A stretch of 64,000 nt of DNA. It comes from Chloroflexia bacterium. Its GTDB lineage: Bacteria; Chloroflexota; Chloroflexia; QHBQ01; JADMIH01. Below the pieces are notes generated by a model. The model saw only the letters and a program-made list of their open reading frames with translations. It searched no databases and was not told where the DNA came from. Within the stretch, counting starts at the first letter, position 1; the number at the start of each line of letters is the position of its first letter. The translations under genes and the position numbers were made by a program. The stretch is taken from NCBI GenBank assembly GCA_036388595.1, contig DASVRN010000269.1, positions 1,628 to 65,627 on the forward strand, written 5' to 3'. Below, piece by piece: positions 686 through 49,239 of this stretch.

Positions 686-1096
686 TTAGCTAACCGCCTC
701 CCTGAGCTTCTCCATGCTGCCGTCTCCGCGCTGCCTCACGGCTTCGAGGAAGTAATCTATGACGCCATCCCCAAAGTCCTCGAAGAGGCCGTTGACGACG
801 CCTCGGACCACGTAACGCTGGAAATCGCCACGCGACAGGGTGGGCGTATAGACGTAGCTGGAGTTGGTGGTGTCCTGGTTGAGCAGGTGCTTCTTGGCGA
901 GGCGGCTCATAGTGGTCATCACGGTGGTGTAGGCTATGTCCTTCTTCTCGCGAAGGGCCTTGTGCACAGTGCTCACAGTGGCGCTGCCCTGCGACCAGAC
1001 CACCTCCATGATGTCATCTTCGAGCGGGCCAAGTACCTTGCTCGAACGTTCCGATGAGGGGTTGAACCGGAATTTTATGTCCTGGGAGGTGTTCAT
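686..1096 (-). CDS. BlaI/MecI/CopY-family winged-helix transcriptional repressor; start placed at internal ATG (MNTSQ) preceded by GGAGCAGGA
   Basis: Translation ...DIMEVVWSQGSATVSTVHKALREKKDIAYTTVMTTMSRLAKKHLL... matches the penicillinase-repressor fold; size about 136 aa. Confidence 0.6.
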   Translation of the reverse strand: MNTSQDIKFRFNPSSERSSKVLGPLEDDIMEVVWSQGSATVSTVHKALREKKDIAYTTVMTTMSRLAKKHLLNQDTTNSSYVYTPTLSRGDFQRYVVRGVVNGLFEDFGDGVIDYFLEAVRQRGDGSMEKLREAVS

Positions 1097-1235
1097 TTCC
1101 TGCTCCTGATACACAAAAAGGATACGCGGAAGCAAAAGCTTCCATCGCCGTGCGCCATTGAGCAGGAAGTGAGAGGCCAGGAAAAGGCATCCGGCAAGTT
1201 CATTTTACCACGAGTCGTACAGGCACGCTAGGGGA

Positions 1236-1418
1236 GGACGATGGACGATGGACGATGGACGATGGACGATGGACGATGGTAGGAGACGAAAACGCCAAGA
1301 CGCAAAGGACGCGCAGAGATTAGGGTTGTTTGGGAAGGGTGCTATCTTCTACTTGGTCCTCAGTCCTCAGACCTCAGTCCTCATCACTCCTATCGTCCAT
1401 CGTCCATCGTCCGTCGTC
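1236..1418. repeat. MITE-like intergenic element, copy A: (GATGGAC)n heptamer run at left end, (GTCCATC)n at right end, conserved internal core
   Basis: Seen directly: gacgatggacgatggacgatggacgatgg...ggagacgaaaacgccaagacgcaaaggacg...ctcatcactcctatcgtccatcgtccatcgtcc; second copy at 15544-15703. Confidence 0.6.
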
Positions 1419-2862
1419 ACCTTACGTCGTCGGTGTTGTCGCCGAGGCCGCGCGGGTCGGCGGTACCGGGGATGTCGGTGCCTGAGCTGGCCTGGGAGTC
1501 GTCGGTAGGGGTGACGGCGTAGGTTGGCGCGGTATCGACGTCGCTGTTGGAATAGAGGTCGGTGCGGTCTACCTCCTGGCGAGTGCCGGGGCCGTAGCTT
1601 GGGCCTGCTTCGTAGACGTCCACCGTGGCGGGGTCCTGCTGGATGGGCACGGCATCGGTGTCGGTGCGGGCGTACTTGTCCTCCACCGTGGCATCGCGCT
1701 CGTCACCTTGGAGCGACTCCTGCGAGTCAGTGGAGGCCCTACCGCCCATCTCGTACGCCGCCGTATCGGGGGTCGAGCCACGGAAGTCGCCCGACTGGCT
1801 GGCCTGCTCGCCGCCCGCGGTGCCGGTGCCTATGGTAGAGCCGGAGGTACCGTGCCCCGTGGTGACAGGTGTCCCGGCTGTGCCGAAAGTGCCTGTGTCC
1901 GGGTTGATGGCACCCTGAGTGCCTGTCGCCGTGTTCGGATTGGTGCCCTCTGGATTTTCGTTCACGTTGCTATCCTCCTGTCGTTCCAGGTTCGCAATGT
2001 CGGCCCAGGTCTCTTCGTCCTCGGTCAGCCCCGAATATGTCGTCGGCGCGGCATCGGCCTCGGCGGTTGTGGGTGGGTCGGGCAGCGACTCGTACCAGCC
2101 CGCTTCGCCGGTGCTTGCCTCCACGTCGCGCTCTACTTCTTCCTCGGTTGTTACATCGTCAGCCTGCTCGGGCCGGTCGTCACGAGGCTCGTCATCTGCC
2201 ATCCAGGTACCTTGCATATCAGGCTCCTCATCGTCGCGAACCAGTGCCTGCAACCCGCTGAAATCCACGAGCGATGGGGTTGCAGGTTCGGCTTCGTCTA
2301 ATTGCGCGGCCGTAAAGCCGACTACGGGCGTAGGTTCGACTACAGGTGCGCTCGTGACTGCTTCAGTACGCACTTCCCGTCCCCCGCTCGACGCCAGCAG
2401 CTCCTCGACGTACCGCGAGTCAGCTGTGGCGGGCGTACGCACCTGCACCAAAAAGCCGCCTTCCGCGCTGTCCTCCGCTTCTTGTGAGGCCGGGATGCTC
2501 AGCCCCGCCAACCCTCCAACGAGGCCGCCTATGATTGCCCCAAGAAGCATGCCGGTGAGAGTGGCGGCGATCGAGCTGACGCCTGAAGTGGGGCCTTGCC
2601 CCGGCTGTGCCATGCTCCCCAGAGCCATGAACCAGGCTGCCGCGCCTCCCAGCATGGCCCCCAACAATGCGCCAAGCCCCGCAGCGACCAGGACATTCGA
2701 GCCGAGGTCGCGCCCTATCCGGTTTTCGTGTTCGGTGGCTCGCATGACGACGGAGATGTCCTCTGCGGCGTGACCCCTCGAACCCAGGGCTTCCAGCGCG
2801 TCCTCCGCGTCCTCTTCGGTCCGGAAGGCGGCGACTACGGTGCCACCCGGCTCTCTTGACAT
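1417..2862 (-). CDS. YflT/general-stress-protein-like N-domain plus glycine-zipper membrane segment plus about 330-aa acidic T/P/G/D/E-rich disordered tail; start at second ATG (MSREP) because GGAGG lies 9 nt upstream
   Basis: N-terminus GTVVAAFRTEEDAEDALEALGSRGHAAEDISVVM resembles the YflT heat-stress domain; GLGALLGAMLGGAAAWF...LTGMLLGAIIGGLVGGLAGL are glycine zippers; the remainder is low complexity. Confidence 0.5.
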   Translation of the reverse strand: MSREPGGTVVAAFRTEEDAEDALEALGSRGHAAEDISVVMRATEHENRIGRDLGSNVLVAAGLGALLGAMLGGAAAWFMALGSMAQPGQGPTSGVSSIAATLTGMLLGAIIGGLVGGLAGLSIPASQEAEDSAEGGFLVQVRTPATADSRYVEELLASSGGREVRTEAVTSAPVVEPTPVVGFTAAQLDEAEPATPSLVDFSGLQALVRDDEEPDMQGTWMADDEPRDDRPEQADDVTTEEEVERDVEASTGEAGWYESLPDPPTTAEADAAPTTYSGLTEDEETWADIANLERQEDSNVNENPEGTNPNTATGTQGAINPDTGTFGTAGTPVTTGHGTSGSTIGTGTAGGEQASQSGDFRGSTPDTAAYEMGGRASTDSQESLQGDERDATVEDKYARTDTDAVPIQQDPATVDVYEAGPSYGPGTRQEVDRTDLYSNSDVDTAPTYAVTPTDDSQASSGTDIPGTADPRGLGDNTDDVR

Positions 2863-2994
2863 TGTGACTGCCTCCACAGGTCTTCAGCTCGGTTACGGAG
2901 CTTGCGATAGTAGGAGACATGATACCACAACCGACCGTGAGCGTGTCGAGTGCAACATTCGTGCCCCTCGTCATCGTTTGCCACTACCGGGGAT

Positions 2995-3055: not shown

Positions 3056-4648
3056 ATGAACTCGATTGGCTTCGTAGTGGCCTGGATTGCCGGTTGTACG
3101 GCCGGACTGGTGCTGCATCTCTCGCGACCGGAGGGGCTGGACAAGACGTTCGGCACCTGGGTGCTAGGTCTCGCTGCCCTGGCGGTTATACCCCTGGCGT
3201 TGGGCTGGCGGGAGAAACGCCTGCGCTGGGCCGGGTTGTGGCTCCTTGCGTTACTGGCAGGTGCCGGTCGTACCCTGCTCATACATTCCCCGGCCGGACC
3301 GAGCGATCTTGCGTATTACAACGGCACCGAGGACTCGGCGCACGTGCGAATCACAGCAATCGTGAGCGCCGAACCAGTCTATCGGGATCGCTCCCAACGG
3401 CTGAGACTTTCCGCTAAATCCCTTGTCCGCGAGGGCGACAGCACCGCGGTGCCGGTCTCAGGGGATATGCTGACTCTCTTGCCCCGTTACCCTACCTACT
3501 ATGTGGGCGAGCAGCTTACCCTCTCGGGCAAGCTAACGGTACCCCCCCAGGTTGAGGACTTCGATTACGCAAGCTACCTAGCGCGCCAGGGCGTGTACTC
3601 GTATATGCTGTTCCCGGCGGTAATCGACCGTCGCGCAGGCACTGACGGCGGGCTGCTTGGGCCAATCTCCTTCACCCGTAATGCGGTGCGGCAGGCGTTG
3701 CGAGAGGGCTTGCCGGAGCCACAGGCCGCCCTCGTGATAGGCGTCGTCACCGGGGACCGGACCGGCATCCCCGAAGAATTGCAGGAAGCATTTACCAGGA
3801 GCGGCACGAGCCACATCCTAGCTATTTCAGGGCAAAACATTTCGATGCTCGTCGGCCTCGTATTCCTGGTCTACGGCGGGAAAGAGAGGCGAAAGATGCC
3901 ACTCTGGCTGCTGGGGACCGTGCTGGCGCTGCTGGCAGCCTACACCGTCTTCACCGGCGCGACACCTGCCGTGGTGAGAGCCTCGGTGATGAGTGCCGTG
4001 TTGCTGGCGTCGCAGGTGGCGGGCAGGCGGTTCGATCCAATTTCGGCGCTGGCGGTATCGGCAGCCTTGATGTCGGTGGTGGACCCGGACCTGCTGCTCG
4101 ATGTGGGATTCCTGCTGAGTTTCGCCGCGATGGTTGGCTTGGTGCAGATTGCTCCATTGGTCTTGAGGGTGCTGGACAAAGCGAAGGTGCCGCAACTCCT
4201 GGGCGTACCTCTATCCGCGAGCTTAGGGGCGCAACTGAGCACCGCGCCTCTAATACTCCTCTTCACCGGGCGTTTCTCGACAGTGTCGCCGCTGGCTACT
4301 CTCACCACGGAGTTCATGCTGCTACCGCTCATGCTCGCGGGTATCGCCGGAGGTCTTGCGGGCGCAATGTTCGGGCAGGTAGGCTCTCTGGTGTCATTGT
4401 TAGCCTGGCCTCCCGCTACCTGGATGATCGAGTCGGTACGTTGGTGGGCGAGCCTGCCCGCTGCTTCGTTGGAGGTCGGGGAGGTAGGTCTGCCGTGGGT
4501 TGTGGGCTATTACCTGCTGGTGGCGCTCTGCATCTGGTGGTTGCGCGAAGGACGGCTCCGCTTCAAGATACGCCCTCGCGAGTTGGCACTTGCGGCGGGC
4601 GCGGTAACTGTGTGGACCCTGTTCCTGGCCCTTCTAGTGAGTCCCTAA
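3056..4648 (+). CDS. comEC: ComEC/Rec2-family DNA internalization channel protein (DUF4131 plus competence domain; no C-terminal metallo-beta-lactamase domain)
   Basis: Polytopic protein; conserved competence-domain motif TRSGTSHILAISGQNISMLVGL and OB-like N region typical of ComEC. Confidence 0.7.
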   Translation: MNSIGFVVAWIAGCTAGLVLHLSRPEGLDKTFGTWVLGLAALAVIPLALGWREKRLRWAGLWLLALLAGAGRTLLIHSPAGPSDLAYYNGTEDSAHVRITAIVSAEPVYRDRSQRLRLSAKSLVREGDSTAVPVSGDMLTLLPRYPTYYVGEQLTLSGKLTVPPQVEDFDYASYLARQGVYSYMLFPAVIDRRAGTDGGLLGPISFTRNAVRQALREGLPEPQAALVIGVVTGDRTGIPEELQEAFTRSGTSHILAISGQNISMLVGLVFLVYGGKERRKMPLWLLGTVLALLAAYTVFTGATPAVVRASVMSAVLLASQVAGRRFDPISALAVSAALMSVVDPDLLLDVGFLLSFAAMVGLVQIAPLVLRVLDKAKVPQLLGVPLSASLGAQLSTAPLILLFTGRFSTVSPLATLTTEFMLLPLMLAGIAGGLAGAMFGQVGSLVSLLAWPPATWMIESVRWWASLPAASLEVGEVGLPWVVGYYLLVALCIWWLREGRLRFKIRPRELALAAGAVTVWTLFLALLVSP

Positions 4649-7358: not shown

Positions 7359-8105
7359 TCAACGCGCCAACTGCCCGCGCAAGGTGCGCACCGCCAGGCT
7401 TCCGAGGCAAGGGCGCTTCTCGGCGCGACGTAGCGGCCAGACGTGCGCTTCCATGAAGTGGGAGTAGTGCAGCAATGCGTCTGCTCCGTCCACCTGCAAG
7501 CCATATGCAAGTGCCATGCTGTTCTCGCGGAAAGTTGCGCGGGCGGATTGCAGGTCCCACTTCGGGTGCTCTATGTCGCAGCGCCGGACCCTACCCTGGC
7601 TCACAGAGTAGTAGCAATAGCGCTCGGTGAGCCACTTTTGTAGATGTATGCTGCCAGCATTAGGGGTGCTTCGACCTTCTCCCATCGGCGCATAAGTCAC
7701 GTCCAGCCGCGCCTCCGGTAGGCCGCGCTCTATCCGGCGGCTCTTGAAGTAGAAGCCGTCCGCGTCCTTGCCGTAATGGATTTCGGCGTTGTAATAATTG
7801 AGGCCATACCAGGGGCGGGCAATCGCAACGGCTAACGGGTTGTCGGCGTCCAGGCTCAAGAAATAGACACCCGGCTGCCCCTGATAGGTCACATAGGTGC
7901 GGATGTTGACCTCCGGGAAGGAAGCTACGGCTTTTACTTCAGGCAAGCCCCGCAGCTTGATGCCGCTCAAGCGGAACACCACCAACCCCAGCCACACCTC
8001 TCCGGCAAAGGTATCGAGGTCCAGTTCCGGTGGAACGGCTTGGCGCAAGATGTCAGGACTAACGGGCCAGTGGGCAAACAGGAGATGGTGCCAACGCTGC
8101 CGCAT
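7359..8105 (-). CDS. DUF2071 (YqjF-like) family protein; start placed at MRQRWHHLLFAHWPV
   Basis: The N-terminal motif MRQRWHxLLFAHWPV and overall length fit DUF2071. Confidence 0.5.
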   Translation of the reverse strand: MRQRWHHLLFAHWPVSPDILRQAVPPELDLDTFAGEVWLGLVVFRLSGIKLRGLPEVKAVASFPEVNIRTYVTYQGQPGVYFLSLDADNPLAVAIARPWYGLNYYNAEIHYGKDADGFYFKSRRIERGLPEARLDVTYAPMGEGRSTPNAGSIHLQKWLTERYCYYSVSQGRVRRCDIEHPKWDLQSARATFRENSMALAYGLQVDGADALLHYSHFMEAHVWPLRRAEKRPCLGSLAVRTLRGQLAR

Positions 8106-8239
8106 GATCCAGGGGCCTGTGCGCAGGGGGCTTGGTGCAGTTCCAGGACGCCGGTCGCTCGCCATTGATGCCCTCCTTCCTGGTGGCCCGGTGCCACTTC
8201 CTCACTGGACAAGCTTCAATGTGTTCCCCACAGCTAGAT

Positions 8240-8266
8240 TGTGATATTACTCACAAGTACTTGTGA
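8240..8266. promoter_or_regulatory. Candidate CRP/FNR-family operator: TGTGA-tattac-TCACA-agtact-TGTGA (three half-sites at 6-nt spacing; contains the perfect 16-bp palindrome TCACAAGTACTTGTGA)
   Basis: Seen directly in the AT-rich divergent region between the DUF2071 gene (-) and tatD (+). Confidence 0.45.
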
Positions 8267-8403
8267 TTTATTGTACAATTAATCTTCTGTTAATGCAATA
8301 CCTTTTGCAGTTGAATGTCCCAGCAAGGTGTGGTACGATACACCGCACCCGCCATCCCAGGCAGGTGCTAAGGGCACGTATAGTGTTGTGAGGACCCCCG
8401 CCC

Positions 8404-9255
8404 ATGCACTCACCCGACCCCGGCAGACCACCCCTCGTTGACAGCCACGCTCACCTCGACTCCACCGACTTCGCGGGAGATAGGGACGAGCTAGTGGCGC
8501 GTGCGCGCGAAAAGGGGCTGGTAGGCATAGTCTCCATCGGCTTCGAGCCTGAGGGTTGGGCATCAACGCTGCAACTGGCAGACCGTTACGAGATGGTGTT
8601 TCCGGCACTCGGGGTACACCCCAATAGTGCCGACCAGACCTTCGAGGCTACGCTGGCGGATTTGGAGTCGTTGTGCAGGCGGCACCAAATAGTCGGGCTG
8701 GGCGAGACAGGGTTGGACTACTACCGCGAGTACGTGACGCACGAGCAACAGCGGGAGTCCTTTCGGGCACACCTGGACCTGGCGCGACAGCTTGACCTCC
8801 CCGTGATCGTCCACAACCGCGATGCACACACCGACATCCTCGACATCTTGAAGCGGGACGGCCATGCTACACGCGGGGTGATGCACTCATTTTCGGGCGA
8901 CGTGGCCTACGCGGAGGAGTGCATGGCGCTGGACTATATGATTTCCATGTCCGGGCCGGTGACTTTCAAGAAGGCAGTCGATAAGCACCAGGTGGCGGCA
9001 GCGGTGCCGCTGGACATGCTGCTGGTGGAGACCGACTGCCCCTACCTTACGCCCGAGCCTTACCGGGGCAGGCGCAACGAGCCGTCCTACGTCTACTACA
9101 CGGCGGAGGCTATTGCGCGCCTACGTGGAGTACCCTTTGAAGTGGTAGCGGAGGCCACCACAGCGAACGCCGCGAGGTTGTTCGGCCTTCCTATACGAGT
9201 TGAGCGGACTGCAACGTGGCAGCCAGAACAGACAGCTATTGAGGCACAACCATGA
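8404..9255 (+). CDS. tatD: TatD-family metal-dependent DNase/hydrolase
   Basis: VDSHAHLD..., LGETGLDYYR, IVHNRDAHTDIL, MHSFSGD, LVETDCPYLTP motifs of the TatD family. Confidence 0.8.
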   Translation: MHSPDPGRPPLVDSHAHLDSTDFAGDRDELVARAREKGLVGIVSIGFEPEGWASTLQLADRYEMVFPALGVHPNSADQTFEATLADLESLCRRHQIVGLGETGLDYYREYVTHEQQRESFRAHLDLARQLDLPVIVHNRDAHTDILDILKRDGHATRGVMHSFSGDVAYAEECMALDYMISMSGPVTFKKAVDKHQVAAAVPLDMLLVETDCPYLTPEPYRGRRNEPSYVYYTAEAIARLRGVPFEVVAEATTANAARLFGLPIRVERTATWQPEQTAIEAQP

Positions 9256-10376
9256 TAAACCTATGGCAGGTACAGGTCTTCCTGGTGGTGGCGGAGACGG
9301 GTAGTTTCTCGGCGGCGGCGGTCCGGTTGCACCTCACGCAACCCGGTGTGAGCCAGCAGATCCGCGCGCTCGAAACCCACCTTGGCACCAAGCTTTTCAT
9401 CCGTCGCGGGCACGGCGTAGAATTGACGGCGGCGGGCTACGACCTGCTCGATCCGGCGCGCCGCCTCATCCACCTCTCGGAGATGACCGAGCGCACCGTC
9501 ATGTCGCGCCGCAGCGAGGTCAGTGGGCGTATCCGCCTGGGCTGCTGCGTCTCGTCCGCACCGTACACATTGGGCGGCTGGCTGTACGAGTTCCGTAGCA
9601 AGTTCCCGGAGGTGTCGGTGCACCTGGAGCACACCGAGCCGGGGCCGATGCTGGGGGCGTTGCGCGCGCAGGAGCTTGACGGCGGATTTGTGCTTGGCCG
9701 CATGCGGGGCCGGGGCCTGGTACACCACAAGATCACCGAGGACCCCATCACGCTCATCGTGCCATTGAACCATGCCTGGACCTCCCCCGCCGAGATAGGC
9801 CGCGCCGAGATGGAGCTTCAAGCCCAGGCCCGTGAGGAGCGTCATACCACGCCCGCCGCTACCCACCCCGCGCCTGCCTCCGCCTCCGGTGGCCGCACTC
9901 CGCGGTTCGGTGAGGACGGCTGGGTGCCCGCCATCAAGCCCGCCCTGCTCAAGACGCAGCCGCTCATCATCGAACACGGCAACGGTGAGAGTCATAGCGA
10001 CGCCCGCCGCGCCCTCAACGACGCCCTGGAGGAACGGAGCCTTTCCATCCGCGATATGCGCGTGGTGCTGGAGCTACCCGACCCCACAGCGGTGGCGTGC
10101 GCGGTAGCCGAAGGACTAGGGGTGGGCCTGGTGCCGCTGTCCATAGCGCGCCGCTTCGTCGGCCAGGTCTTCCCCCTGCGGATAGAGGGTTTCTCGCTCG
10201 CCCAACACGTCTACCTGATCCACGACCGCAAGGCATTGCACAGCCCGGCGGTGAGCGCCTGGTGGAAGTTCGTGGACAACAAGGTCGGCAAGCAGGGGCG
10301 CACCGAGTCGCAAGTCGAGGAAGAGCAGCGAGAAGAGGCACTAGCGCCTGTGGAGATGGCGGCCAGCCTGGTTTAG
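9252..10376 (+). CDS. LysR-family transcriptional regulator (start overlaps the tatD stop, ATGA) with a low-complexity insertion (HTTPAATHPAPASASGGRTPRF) in the effector domain
   Basis: N-terminal HTH VQVFLVVAETGSFSAAAVRLHLTQPGVSQQIRALETHLGTKLF is the LysR signature. Confidence 0.8.
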   Translation: MINLWQVQVFLVVAETGSFSAAAVRLHLTQPGVSQQIRALETHLGTKLFIRRGHGVELTAAGYDLLDPARRLIHLSEMTERTVMSRRSEVSGRIRLGCCVSSAPYTLGGWLYEFRSKFPEVSVHLEHTEPGPMLGALRAQELDGGFVLGRMRGRGLVHHKITEDPITLIVPLNHAWTSPAEIGRAEMELQAQAREERHTTPAATHPAPASASGGRTPRFGEDGWVPAIKPALLKTQPLIIEHGNGESHSDARRALNDALEERSLSIRDMRVVLELPDPTAVACAVAEGLGVGLVPLSIARRFVGQVFPLRIEGFSLAQHVYLIHDRKALHSPAVSAWWKFVDNKVGKQGRTESQVEEEQREEALAPVEMAASLV

Positions 10377-47191: not shown

Positions 47192-49239
47192 GTGGAGGCC
47201 CGTACCAAACGCTCAACCCAGAAGACCAGCGCCTGCCATGCCACCGCACTCAAAAGCAGTCCCGCCAGCCGCCTGCCCCAGGTGCCGTGCCCGCCCAGCG
47301 CGGCCAGACCCGCACCACCCGCGACCGCCACCGGCAGCATGGTGAAGAAGAGGTGCTTGCCGATCATGTCGAGCTTGTAATTCGCGGCAACGAAGATGGG
47401 CAGAATGGCAAGCCAGGCGATAACCAGGGTAGTAGCGCGAGACTGCACGTGGTTAACGTGCCGCCTTGAGAGGAGTAGAAGCATACCGGCCGCGGCTAGC
47501 AATGAGGGCAGAGTACTCGCCAGGTAATCACCCGTCCACGCGAGCAATTCAGCTATCCCGCCCGGCCACCGGACCGTCGTACCACCACCTGGTGCCGCGC
47601 CCAGCAGCGCCACCGCCGAGGCTGTCACAGGTGTCACATAGAGGCCGTAGTAGGCTATGAATGCCAGCAGCCAGCCCGCCGCCAGCACCACGTAAGGTTG
47701 CCAGCTAAAGGAGTGCGCTGATTTCGGAGCGGGGCGGGACAACCTCCAACCCACCGGCACGACCGCCAGGATCAAGGTTACAAACACCGCCACAGTTGGG
47801 AAGGACAGCAACGTGAGAGCAGCAAGCAACACTGCCGCCAGCAACGTGGCAAGTCGCCACCCCTTTGCCGAGGAGGCAAGCACGACTGCCAGCAGACCCG
47901 TAGCAAGCCACTGGGCAAGTATGGTCGGCAGGATGCCATAGGAGAAGGCGCGGAACGCCAGGGGCATCACCGCATAGAGGAAAGCAGCAGCCAATGCTGC
48001 CCTTGTGGAAGCACCAACTCGCCGGGTGAACCAGTATGCGAACAGCAGAATAGTGGAATCTATCAAGCAAGTTGACCATTTGACCAATGTCTCAAGTTCG
48101 AATGATAGGGTTGCCAGAGGCGCGGCGGCAAGGTAGAACAGCGGGGACTTGGGGATTAACAGCGCCATGCCCCATTCCGGCGGCACCTCGCTCAACCCAC
48201 CCGGAAAGTACAGCGCCTGCCAGTCGCCCGCAAGCAGAGTACGCAGCCACTTCATGTGGTAGGGCATGTCTATGATTACCGCTTGGGGAAGCGCCATCCC
48301 GCCGTAGCGCAACCCGAAGGCGAACGCGACTGCAACGGACAACAGCCGCGCGACTTGCAGCCCAGGACCCGAGCTACGCCAATCGACCACTCGCTCACTT
48401 ACCAGGAATACAAGCAGCATGCTGCCCAGGGTAGTCGCTAGGTGTGGTGCCACCACAGTAGCTGCTGTGTGGCTACTTGCCAGCAACAGACAGAGGCCGA
48501 CGCCCACCGCCAGACTCACCACTAAAGCTCGTATCGGTACTGCCCGCCTGGCGCTGAAGCCCCGTAGCATCCTGCCAATCAGGATGTATGCGACCAATAT
48601 GCTCAACATCAGGAAGCCCAACGTCGTCAGGGAGGGCCAGATGAAGCCCCCGGCTGGGGACTGTTCGAGAACGAGGCGGTCTACCTTCAGCCCTTTGGCC
48701 TGTGCTTCTTCGCCTGGTAGACGGTACTCAGAAGCGCGAAATTCTACTACTGTGTCTCGGGACGCCAGGGCAGCGGGTTGGCTCTCATCGATTCTGAACG
48801 TCAGCTCCTGCCAGCCAGGCACGACCTCGGAGGCAAAGAACCTGACGCCGTTCACGTGTACCTCAACCGGCGCCGTCCGCTGGGCGTCCAGGGTGACGGT
48901 TAGCGTGAAGGGCCTGGAGCCACCCACACCAGGGAAGCTCACATAGCCGTATACGTCGGACCACCTGTAGGTGCGGCCCGATTCCTCAAGGCGAGTGTGG
49001 AAGTTACGGGTGTACGCCTGGTCCTGCGGCGAGCCGACATCCACAATGTACGTGCCTGGAATCTGGTAGGCTGCAACCGATAGGCCCATTACCAGCATGA
49101 GGCCAGGCCAGACGACCCACCACCTCAGCAGTCCCACGGCGAAGCGGAATTCTTCAACAATCCACCGCACGAGTGAGAAGAGATAGGCAGCGACTCCCAC
49201 CGGAGGGCGCGGGGCACTTGGACGGCTACTTGAAGGCAT
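47188..49239 (-). CDS. Paralog 2 of the tandem polytopic membrane-protein family; start at ATG 49239 (MPSSSRP) to remove the spurious Cys/Arg-rich leader
   Basis: AYQIPGTYIVDVGSPQD...RWSDVYGYVSFPGVGGSRPFTLTVTLD beta-domain aligns with paralogs 3 and 4; 4-nt overlap with paralog 1. Confidence 0.45.
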   Translation of the reverse strand: MPSSSRPSAPRPPVGVAAYLFSLVRWIVEEFRFAVGLLRWWVVWPGLMLVMGLSVAAYQIPGTYIVDVGSPQDQAYTRNFHTRLEESGRTYRWSDVYGYVSFPGVGGSRPFTLTVTLDAQRTAPVEVHVNGVRFFASEVVPGWQELTFRIDESQPAALASRDTVVEFRASEYRLPGEEAQAKGLKVDRLVLEQSPAGGFIWPSLTTLGFLMLSILVAYILIGRMLRGFSARRAVPIRALVVSLAVGVGLCLLLASSHTAATVVAPHLATTLGSMLLVFLVSERVVDWRSSGPGLQVARLLSVAVAFAFGLRYGGMALPQAVIIDMPYHMKWLRTLLAGDWQALYFPGGLSEVPPEWGMALLIPKSPLFYLAAAPLATLSFELETLVKWSTCLIDSTILLFAYWFTRRVGASTRAALAAAFLYAVMPLAFRAFSYGILPTILAQWLATGLLAVVLASSAKGWRLATLLAAVLLAALTLLSFPTVAVFVTLILAVVPVGWRLSRPAPKSAHSFSWQPYVVLAAGWLLAFIAYYGLYVTPVTASAVALLGAAPGGGTTVRWPGGIAELLAWTGDYLASTLPSLLAAAGMLLLLSRRHVNHVQSRATTLVIAWLAILPIFVAANYKLDMIGKHLFFTMLPVAVAGGAGLAALGGHGTWGRRLAGLLLSAVAWQALVFWVERLVRAST

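Follow-up and report, generated by a model that had tools for sequence, protein, structure and literature searches.

The question raised by this locus is which regulator recognizes the TGTGA/TCACA half-sites located between a DUF2071 gene and the divergently oriented tatD-lysR pair, and which of the two transcription units it controls. The preliminary description of the region, which belongs to a 64,000-nucleotide stretch of Chloroflexia DNA (the window), had proposed that three phased half-sites form the operator of a Crp/Fnr-family regulator, or of another dimeric regulator, acting on one or both units.

Two adjacent 18-bp palindromes

Direct reading of the 27-bp feature (8240-8266) bore out the sequence of the three half-sites, TGTGA (8240-8244), TCACA (8251-8255), and TGTGA (8262-8266), which are separated by TATTAC and AGTACT, respectively. 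The first two provide a match at all ten positions (8240-8255) to the Crp/Fnr-family core dyad TGTGA-N6-TCACA, as had been claimed, and the corresponding sequence, TGTGATATTACTCACA, is the only perfect match in the window. The mean number of perfect matches expected by chance was 0.06, as deduced from dinucleotide shuffles (one match in 6 of 100 shuffles). Allowing one mismatch, three matches were present in the window for 1.23 expected; a one-mismatch match to the Crp core, at 47623, is located where overlapping long open reading frames join. The middle of the feature is also a perfect 16-bp palindrome, TCACAAGTACTTGTGA (TCACA-N6-TGTGA), and the palindrome said to follow the half-sites is TTGTACAA, found at 8271-8278. 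The region was correctly described as AT-rich, with a GC content of 30% (8240-8319) against approximately 62% for the window.

A scan for TatD proteins, based on one genome per species, led to three Chloroflexia/Chloroflexota MAGs (L001 to L003) with TatD proteins displaying 88-91% identity. In the alignment of the intergenic regions of these three loci, the 15 half-site columns showed no variation at all, and substitutions were confined to 5 of the 12 columns of the spacers (hypergeometric p ~0.01). Since the whole stretch equivalent to 8237-8403 was conserved at this close distance, only 8187-8236 having diverged, more distant orthologs were required. Thirteen further loci were fetched via homologues of the LysR and DUF2071 proteins, and 16 related Chloroflexota loci were compared. 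A search of metagenomes for ATTTATT-N5-ATTAAT-N3-CTGTTAATGC, the conserved core, returned one locus only (L009), which was added as an ortholog but was insufficient to delineate a regulon.

Comparison of the 16 loci indicates that the conserved unit is an 18-mer, TTGTGA-N6-TCACAA, present in two adjacent copies with a degenerate fourth half-site, and the three equivalent phased half-sites originally proposed are better described as two abutting 18-bp palindromes. Site A (8239-8256; TTGTGA-TATTAC-TCACAA) is a perfect 18-bp palindrome, without any mismatch, that holds the first two half-sites. Site B (8261-8278; TTGTGA-TTTATT-GTACAA) contains two mismatches, and its intact half is the third half-site. 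Of the 12 distinct orthologous loci containing the element, 10 harbored a site A with zero or one mismatch; two mismatches were present in L005 and L009. Pooling both halves of site A from the 12 distinct loci gave T24, T23, G24, T24, G22, and A19 (each out of 24) for the six half-site positions, followed by A10, T9, G3, and C2 at position 7; the N6 was not conserved and was 75% A+T. On these counts, the constraint on the outer TT/AA is no weaker than that on the TGTGA core.

Sites A and B were offset by 22 bp in the majority of loci; the offset increased to 23 bp in L006 and to 25 bp in L016. Locus L012 contained a single perfect site and no site B. This variation in spacing and the presence of a single site in L012 indicate that A and B behave as two independent dimer sites. 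The N6 spacing of the central palindrome TCACA-N6-TGTGA was lost in L006 and L016, and the palindrome was missing from L012. The second palindrome sharing the TCACA half-site, as put forward in the preliminary description, is therefore present in the window but is not a conserved unit; it is a by-product of the 4-bp distance between sites A and B in this genome. NrdR boxes were also considered for the central palindrome and rejected because its N6 spacing is not conserved.

The predicted DUF2071 promoter and the probable target of the sites

The DUF2071 gene (COG2071/YqjF-type; 7359-8165, minus strand) was identified by a match to Pfam PF09844 (E = 9.9e-65). Its start region is conserved in relatives and is preceded by the ribosome-binding site AAGGAG (8173-8178, minus strand). 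The protein showed weak Pfam similarity to acetoacetate decarboxylase, no NCBIfam match, and no solved relative detectable by sequence. Leftward transcription of the gene is predicted to be driven by a sigma-70-type promoter comprising a -35 hexamer, TTGCAT (8298-8293), and a -10 hexamer, TACAAT (8275-8270), separated by 17 nucleotides. The inferred transcription start is located near 8263, generating a 5' UTR of approximately 98 nucleotides. In the orthologs, the -35 hexamer was TTGCAT, TTGTAT, TTGACA, or TTGCAA and the -10 hexamer was TACAAT, TAGAAT, TAAAAT, or TATAAT, the variation between the latter four being confined to position 3, or TATTAT in L016. The spacing of 17 nucleotides was fixed even where the surroundings differed: a promoter scan detected TTGACA-N17-TAAAAT (11/12) in L013 and TTGCAA-N17-TATTAT (9/12) in L016. 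On the DUF2071-sense strand, the arrangement [-35]-N17-[-10]-AAATCACAA-N4-TTGTGx-N6-TCACAA is common to all loci with two sites; in L012, the single site is preceded, at a distance of four bases, by TGGTATACT. An operator of the MerR type in the promoter spacer was rejected, the spacer being of 17 rather than 19-20 nucleotides.

Relative to the predicted start, site B extends from about -15 to +3, its degenerate half overlapping the -10 hexamer, and site A from about +8 to +25; the centers of the two sites are located at about -7 and +17. Occupancy of these positions would block RNA polymerase, which implies repression, provided that the DUF2071 gene is transcribed from the predicted promoter. 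Based on the conservation of the sites and their position, we consider it very probable that the feature is a conserved operator pair for a dimeric repressor of the DUF2071 gene. A promoter-like match on the plus strand, CTCACA-N18-TACAAT, overlaps the sites, with a candidate start at about 8286; it recurs in L013 and is absent from L016 and L012. A weak divergent promoter on the plus strand, also covered by the same sites, is conceivable.

The location of site A close to the predicted 5' end of the transcript, where it could form a 6-bp hairpin, raises the possibility that the palindromes act at the RNA level as a stem-loop stabilizing or attenuating the DUF2071 mRNA. We regard this as having next to no chance of being correct and rejected it since the inferred 5' UTR did not fold better than shuffled sequences (z = 0.14) and the base pairs disrupted by substitutions in orthologs are not restored by compensatory changes (TTGTGC/TCACAA, TTGTGC/TAACAA, and TAGTTA/TCACAA). 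Furthermore, site B is mostly upstream of the inferred start, and conservation within the intergenic region is lowest in the remainder of the UTR (8187-8236). An Rfam scan of 7800-8800 returned only a sub-threshold match to the ffh sRNA inside the DUF2071 coding sequence, indicating that no known RNA element is present in this interval.

The divergent unit comprises tatD (8404-9255, plus strand) and lysR (9252-10376, plus strand), both identified by Pfam; lysR codes for a LysR-family regulator, and its start overlaps the stop codon of tatD (ATGA). A gene encoding acetyl-CoA synthetase is located further downstream of lysR. The predicted tatD-lysR promoter, TTGAAT-N17-TACGAT (8311-8339, plus strand), is conserved upstream of tatD, would start transcription near 8346, and contains a spacer ending in TGG, which forms an extended -10 element (8331-8339) preceded, 17 nucleotides upstream, by TTGAAT (8311-8316). 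In almost all of the tatD-lysR loci that were examined, L007 and L008 included, the extended -10 element close to the start of tatD was TGGTAGGAT, TGGTACCAT, or TGGTACGAT; its counterpart in L005 is TGTTAGGAT. The tatD-lysR pair was kept with or without the AT-rich element (L001-L003, L005-L010, and L013-L016) and was present in all loci found through LysR.

Several observations were made on the pair itself. The genes tatD and lysR remain paired in Chloroflexota orthologs with as little as 58% identity; such an association of a TatD nuclease/hydrolase with a regulator is unusual. With 374 residues, the LysR protein exceeds the typical length by approximately 70 residues, and its substrate-binding domain is matched by Pfam as two separate stretches. 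The 5' leader of tatD (8340-8403; GCTAAGGGCAC...GTGTTGTGAGG) is nearly invariant in the relatives with 88-91% identical TatD proteins, as well as in L010 and L014; it is not conserved in more distant loci and has no Rfam match.

Among the tatD-lysR loci, the AT-rich element was found only where DUF2071 is the divergent neighbor (L005, L006, L009, L010, L013, L014/15, and L016). Loci L007 and L008, in which tatD-lysR is present without DUF2071, do not contain the element upstream of tatD. Conversely, DUF2071 genes in other contexts, devoid of tatD-lysR, still carry the sites (L011 and L012). Together with the existence of a separate tatD-lysR promoter, these results indicate that the element belongs to DUF2071. 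The regulated target is therefore probably the DUF2071 gene only, tatD-lysR being outside the control of the sites. Of the earlier proposal that one or both divergent units are controlled, the part concerning DUF2071 stands and the part concerning tatD-lysR does not. In L005, L006, and L016, the element adjoins DUF2071 and is separated from the tatD promoter by an insertion of approximately 190-390 bp containing long inverted repeats, which places the sites roughly 240-440 bp away from that promoter. The repeats, none of which is present in the window, are located between both promoters at ~4890-5010 in L005, ~4897-5018 in L006, and ~4560-4860 in L016 (locus coordinates). Examples are CGTTCCGAGGCACGAGGAAT...ATTCCTCGTGCCTCGGAATG in L005 and CTAACCGCCAAGACGC...GCGTCTTGGCGGTTAG in L006, in addition to a CCCCTGA tandem repeat. 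These insertions may be MITE-like elements or terminators.

Linkage between the sites and DUF2071 holds within this Chloroflexota clade down to approximately 50% identity between DUF2071 proteins. A Rex-type site was looked for upstream of the DUF2071 gene of a Cohnella (Firmicute), and none was found. In L017, in which DUF2071 is located behind another gene, there was no linkage of sites. The scan for TTGTGA-N6-TCACAA covered approximately 246 kb, consisting of the window and the related loci and representing mostly one syntenic region, and all matches with zero or one mismatch were upstream of DUF2071 genes. With two mismatches, TTGTGACTGCCTCCACAG (2862-2879) is a weak Rex-like match located approximately 180 bp upstream of a comEC-like gene (3056-4648). 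This match is preserved in L002 and L003 and degraded in L001. We consider it a chance or weak occurrence that is probably not functional.

The product of lysR is itself a candidate regulator, which would bind the phased half-sites as an OxyR-like tetramer, autoregulate tatD-lysR, and control DUF2071. OxyR binds as a tetramer to four half-sites located one helical turn apart, and LysR-type regulators commonly control the divergent gene. As in OxyR-type sites, half-sites with centers 11 bp apart alternate in orientation, here over approximately 40 bp, in a divergent promoter region beside a lysR gene; DUF2071 and tatD-lysR are divergent neighbors in most loci. This explanation is nevertheless highly improbable since the sites occur without lysR within 5 kb (L011 and L012), and lysR occurs without the sites (L007 and L008). 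The variable spacing of the pair and its reduction to a single site in one locus are also unlike the fixed footprint of a tetramer. In addition, there is no T-N11-A LysR box, the 18-bp palindrome, which is of even length, giving only T-N10-A, T-N14-A, and T-N16-A. Finally, the position of the sites with respect to the predicted DUF2071 promoter (-15 to +25) does not correspond to -65/-35, and their distance from the tatD promoter in L005, L006, and L016 is a further argument against this explanation.

Candidate repressors

Four features of the sites, namely the conservation of the outer TT/AA, the A+T-rich center, the repressor positions, and the pairing, favor Rex over a Crp/Fnr activator. 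Site A is an 18-bp inverted repeat conforming to the Rex operator consensus TTGTGAAnnnnTTCACAA (PMC6391272, PMC2883068), which specifies 14 positions; site A agrees with 12-13 of them, both in the window and in most orthologs, and site B matches 10-12. A departure from this consensus is that positions 7 and 12 (A/T) are matched on one side only. A generalized Rex consensus, TTGTGAANNNNTTCACAA, is presented as an 18-20-bp palindrome in the part of PMC6391272 that cites Ravcheev 2012, and the consensus reported for Staphylococcus aureus is TTGTGAAW4TTCACAA (PMC2883068). The crystallized operator of Thermotoga maritima Rex, ATTTGAGAAATTTATCACAAAA (...TTTATCACAA), contains an A at position 12, before TCACAA, as do the sites of the window (PMC8836258). 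The TTGTGA/TCACAA arms of an 18-bp inverted repeat and its A+T-rich center are likewise found in the Rex operators of Gram-positive bacteria, Thermus, Thermotoga, and Chloroflexi, for example those of S. aureus ldh1, adhE, and pflB, of Streptomyces coelicolor cydA, nuoA, and rex, and of T. maritima TM0201.

The location of the sites on the predicted TTGCAT-N17-TAnAAT promoter is also that expected for Rex. In S. aureus, Rex sites colocalize with promoters, Rex acts as a repressor, and two sites are predicted for ldh1 (PMC2883068). Placement at or beside the -35, -10, or +1 positions and occasional pairing are common to Rex operators and to the predicted DUF2071 sites (PMC2883068, PMC6391272, PMC8836258). 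Rex orthologues are reported in Chloroflexi in the portion of PMC6682613 that cites Ravcheev 2012, and RegPrecise includes a Chloroflexi regulog collection (PMC3840689). No rex gene was detected in the 64-kb window or in approximately 180 kb of related loci by phmmer, with an approximate Bacillus subtilis Rex query, or by Pfam. The regulator gene of known Rex operators is located elsewhere in the genome, as would be the case here. The main difference from known Rex operators concerns the target, a gene encoding a DUF2071 protein instead of a respiratory, fermentative, or NAD-related gene: DUF2071 is not known to belong to a Rex regulon, and there was no canonical Rex target gene, such as nuo, cyd, ldh, adh, or rex itself, in the DNA examined (window and fetched loci).

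Based on these comparisons, we favor Rex, with moderate confidence, as the repressor acting at the DUF2071 sites. In the corresponding model, a dimer would bind to each of sites A and B. Occupancy of site B would cover the -10 hexamer and the transcription start, occupancy of site A would cover positions +8 to +25, and RNA polymerase would be shut out. Binding of S. aureus Rex is enhanced by NAD+ and lowered by NADH (PMC2883068). A repressor of this type, sensing the NADH/NAD+ ratio, would keep DUF2071 off at a low ratio and would be released as NADH rises.

The regulator initially proposed, a Crp/Fnr-family dimer responding to cyclic nucleotides, O2, or redox state, would bind to TGTGA-N6-TCACA and activate or repress DUF2071, the plus-strand promoter, or both. 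The TGTGA-N6-TCACA core is used by several Gram-positive members of the family, including B. subtilis Fnr, S. aureus ArcR, and actinobacterial Crp/GlxR. The DUF2071 sites share with these, and with the sites of Escherichia coli CRP, an identical ten-base core and the geometry of a 16-bp dyad. The same ten bases form the core of the Rex operator, and sequence alone cannot tell the two families apart. In addition, the center of site A is located at about -38.5 with respect to the plus-strand candidate CTCACA-N18-TACAAT, near the position of a class II activator. However, that candidate promoter is lost in L016 and L012, and neither site is centered at the activator positions (about -41.5 and -61.5) of the predicted DUF2071 promoter, where both occupy repressor positions. 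Conservation also extends, unlike that of Crp/Fnr sites, to the outer TT/AA, which is outside the Crp core and invariant, whereas, within the core, conservation is lowest at the A of TGTGA. Finally, the two sites abut with an offset of 22 bp, and abutting pairs are unusual for Crp. A search by phmmer, with approximate E. coli CRP and FNR queries, and by Pfam revealed no Crp/Fnr homologue in the window, which is weak evidence since only 64 kb were searched; the fetched loci likewise contained no crp/fnr gene. Overall, we consider control by a Crp/Fnr-family regulator unlikely. The general proposal of an operator for a dimeric regulator was upheld, since the operator is conserved in the divergent promoter region, and its assignment to Crp/Fnr was weakened by a fit poorer than that of Rex.

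Among the 46 predicted proteins of the window, the Pfam scan identified only two regulators, LysR and a winged-helix repressor of the BlaI/CopY type (Penicillinase_R; 686-1135, minus strand). The latter gene adjoins an open reading frame of 486 residues without a Pfam match (1417-2877, minus strand), and the two may form a sensor-repressor pair resembling BlaI/BlaR1, in which the sensor would be divergent. Elsewhere in the window, the interval ~21000-62100, mostly transcribed from the minus strand, encodes GT4 glycosyltransferases, SAM methyltransferases, PMT_2, YfhO, and DUF2079 membrane proteins, and an SLH-domain protein, in addition to at least nine long open reading frames (530-930 residues) without a Pfam match. 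These genes probably represent a locus for cell-envelope polysaccharides or for glycosylation.

A dimeric repressor dedicated to DUF2071, uncharacterized and encoded elsewhere (for example of the TetR, MarR, PadR, or XRE type), would account for the presence of the motif only at DUF2071 promoters in approximately 246 kb, as expected for a local regulon, and the resemblance to Rex and Crp sites would then be coincidental. The sequence scanned is mostly a single syntenic region, so that the absence of other sites carries little information. Dedicated repressors are usually encoded next to their targets, but no regulator gene is consistently adjacent to DUF2071, and L011 and L012 contain no transcription factor gene within 5 kb. 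Chance is also an unlikely explanation for a resemblance that extends to 12-13 of the 14 positions of a well-defined consensus and to its 18-bp geometry. A further argument for a dedicated repressor is that the promoter contains a second palindrome, ATTAA-N7-TTAAT, so that a single known motif does not account for all of its regulatory information. Taken together, these arguments make a dedicated repressor rather improbable.

A second palindrome in the promoter and significance of the sites

The second palindrome, ATTAA-N7-TTAAT (ATTAATCTTCTGTTAAT; 8278-8294), is conserved and located between the -35 and -10 hexamers of the predicted DUF2071 promoter. It is the sole such site in the window even if one mismatch is allowed, for 0.11 expected. 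The palindrome was perfect in 10 loci and occurred nowhere else within them, and all substitutions in orthologs were inside the N7. It was missing from L012, L013, and L016, though TTGTGA-N6-TCACAA sites are present in these loci. A second regulator may recognize this conserved palindrome, which could also be just a constrained spacer. The DUF2071 promoter could accordingly be viewed as a composite switch combining the two TTGTGA-N6-TCACAA operators with ATTAA-N7-TTAAT and responding to one or two regulators other than Rex and Crp/Fnr, or to Rex and a second factor. We regard this as decidedly improbable. If it were correct, DUF2071 would have a tightly gated function, induced by redox conditions or by stress, and the promoter would offer the first physiological handle on a widespread family with an acetoacetate decarboxylase-like fold.

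Rex boxes on promoters are already well known, including those of computationally predicted Chloroflexi regulons; the identification of a DUF2071/COG2071 protein as a target may be new. The locus also provides an example of a Crp-like core that is misread when the flanking TT/AA and the position on the promoter are ignored. If the sites are not Rex operators, they would amount to a routine regulatory site on a gene of unknown function. If they are, they would tie the uncharacterized DUF2071/COG2071 family to control by the NADH/NAD+ redox state in poorly studied soil Chloroflexia, and oxygen limitation or reductive stress would be a testable condition for the function of DUF2071.
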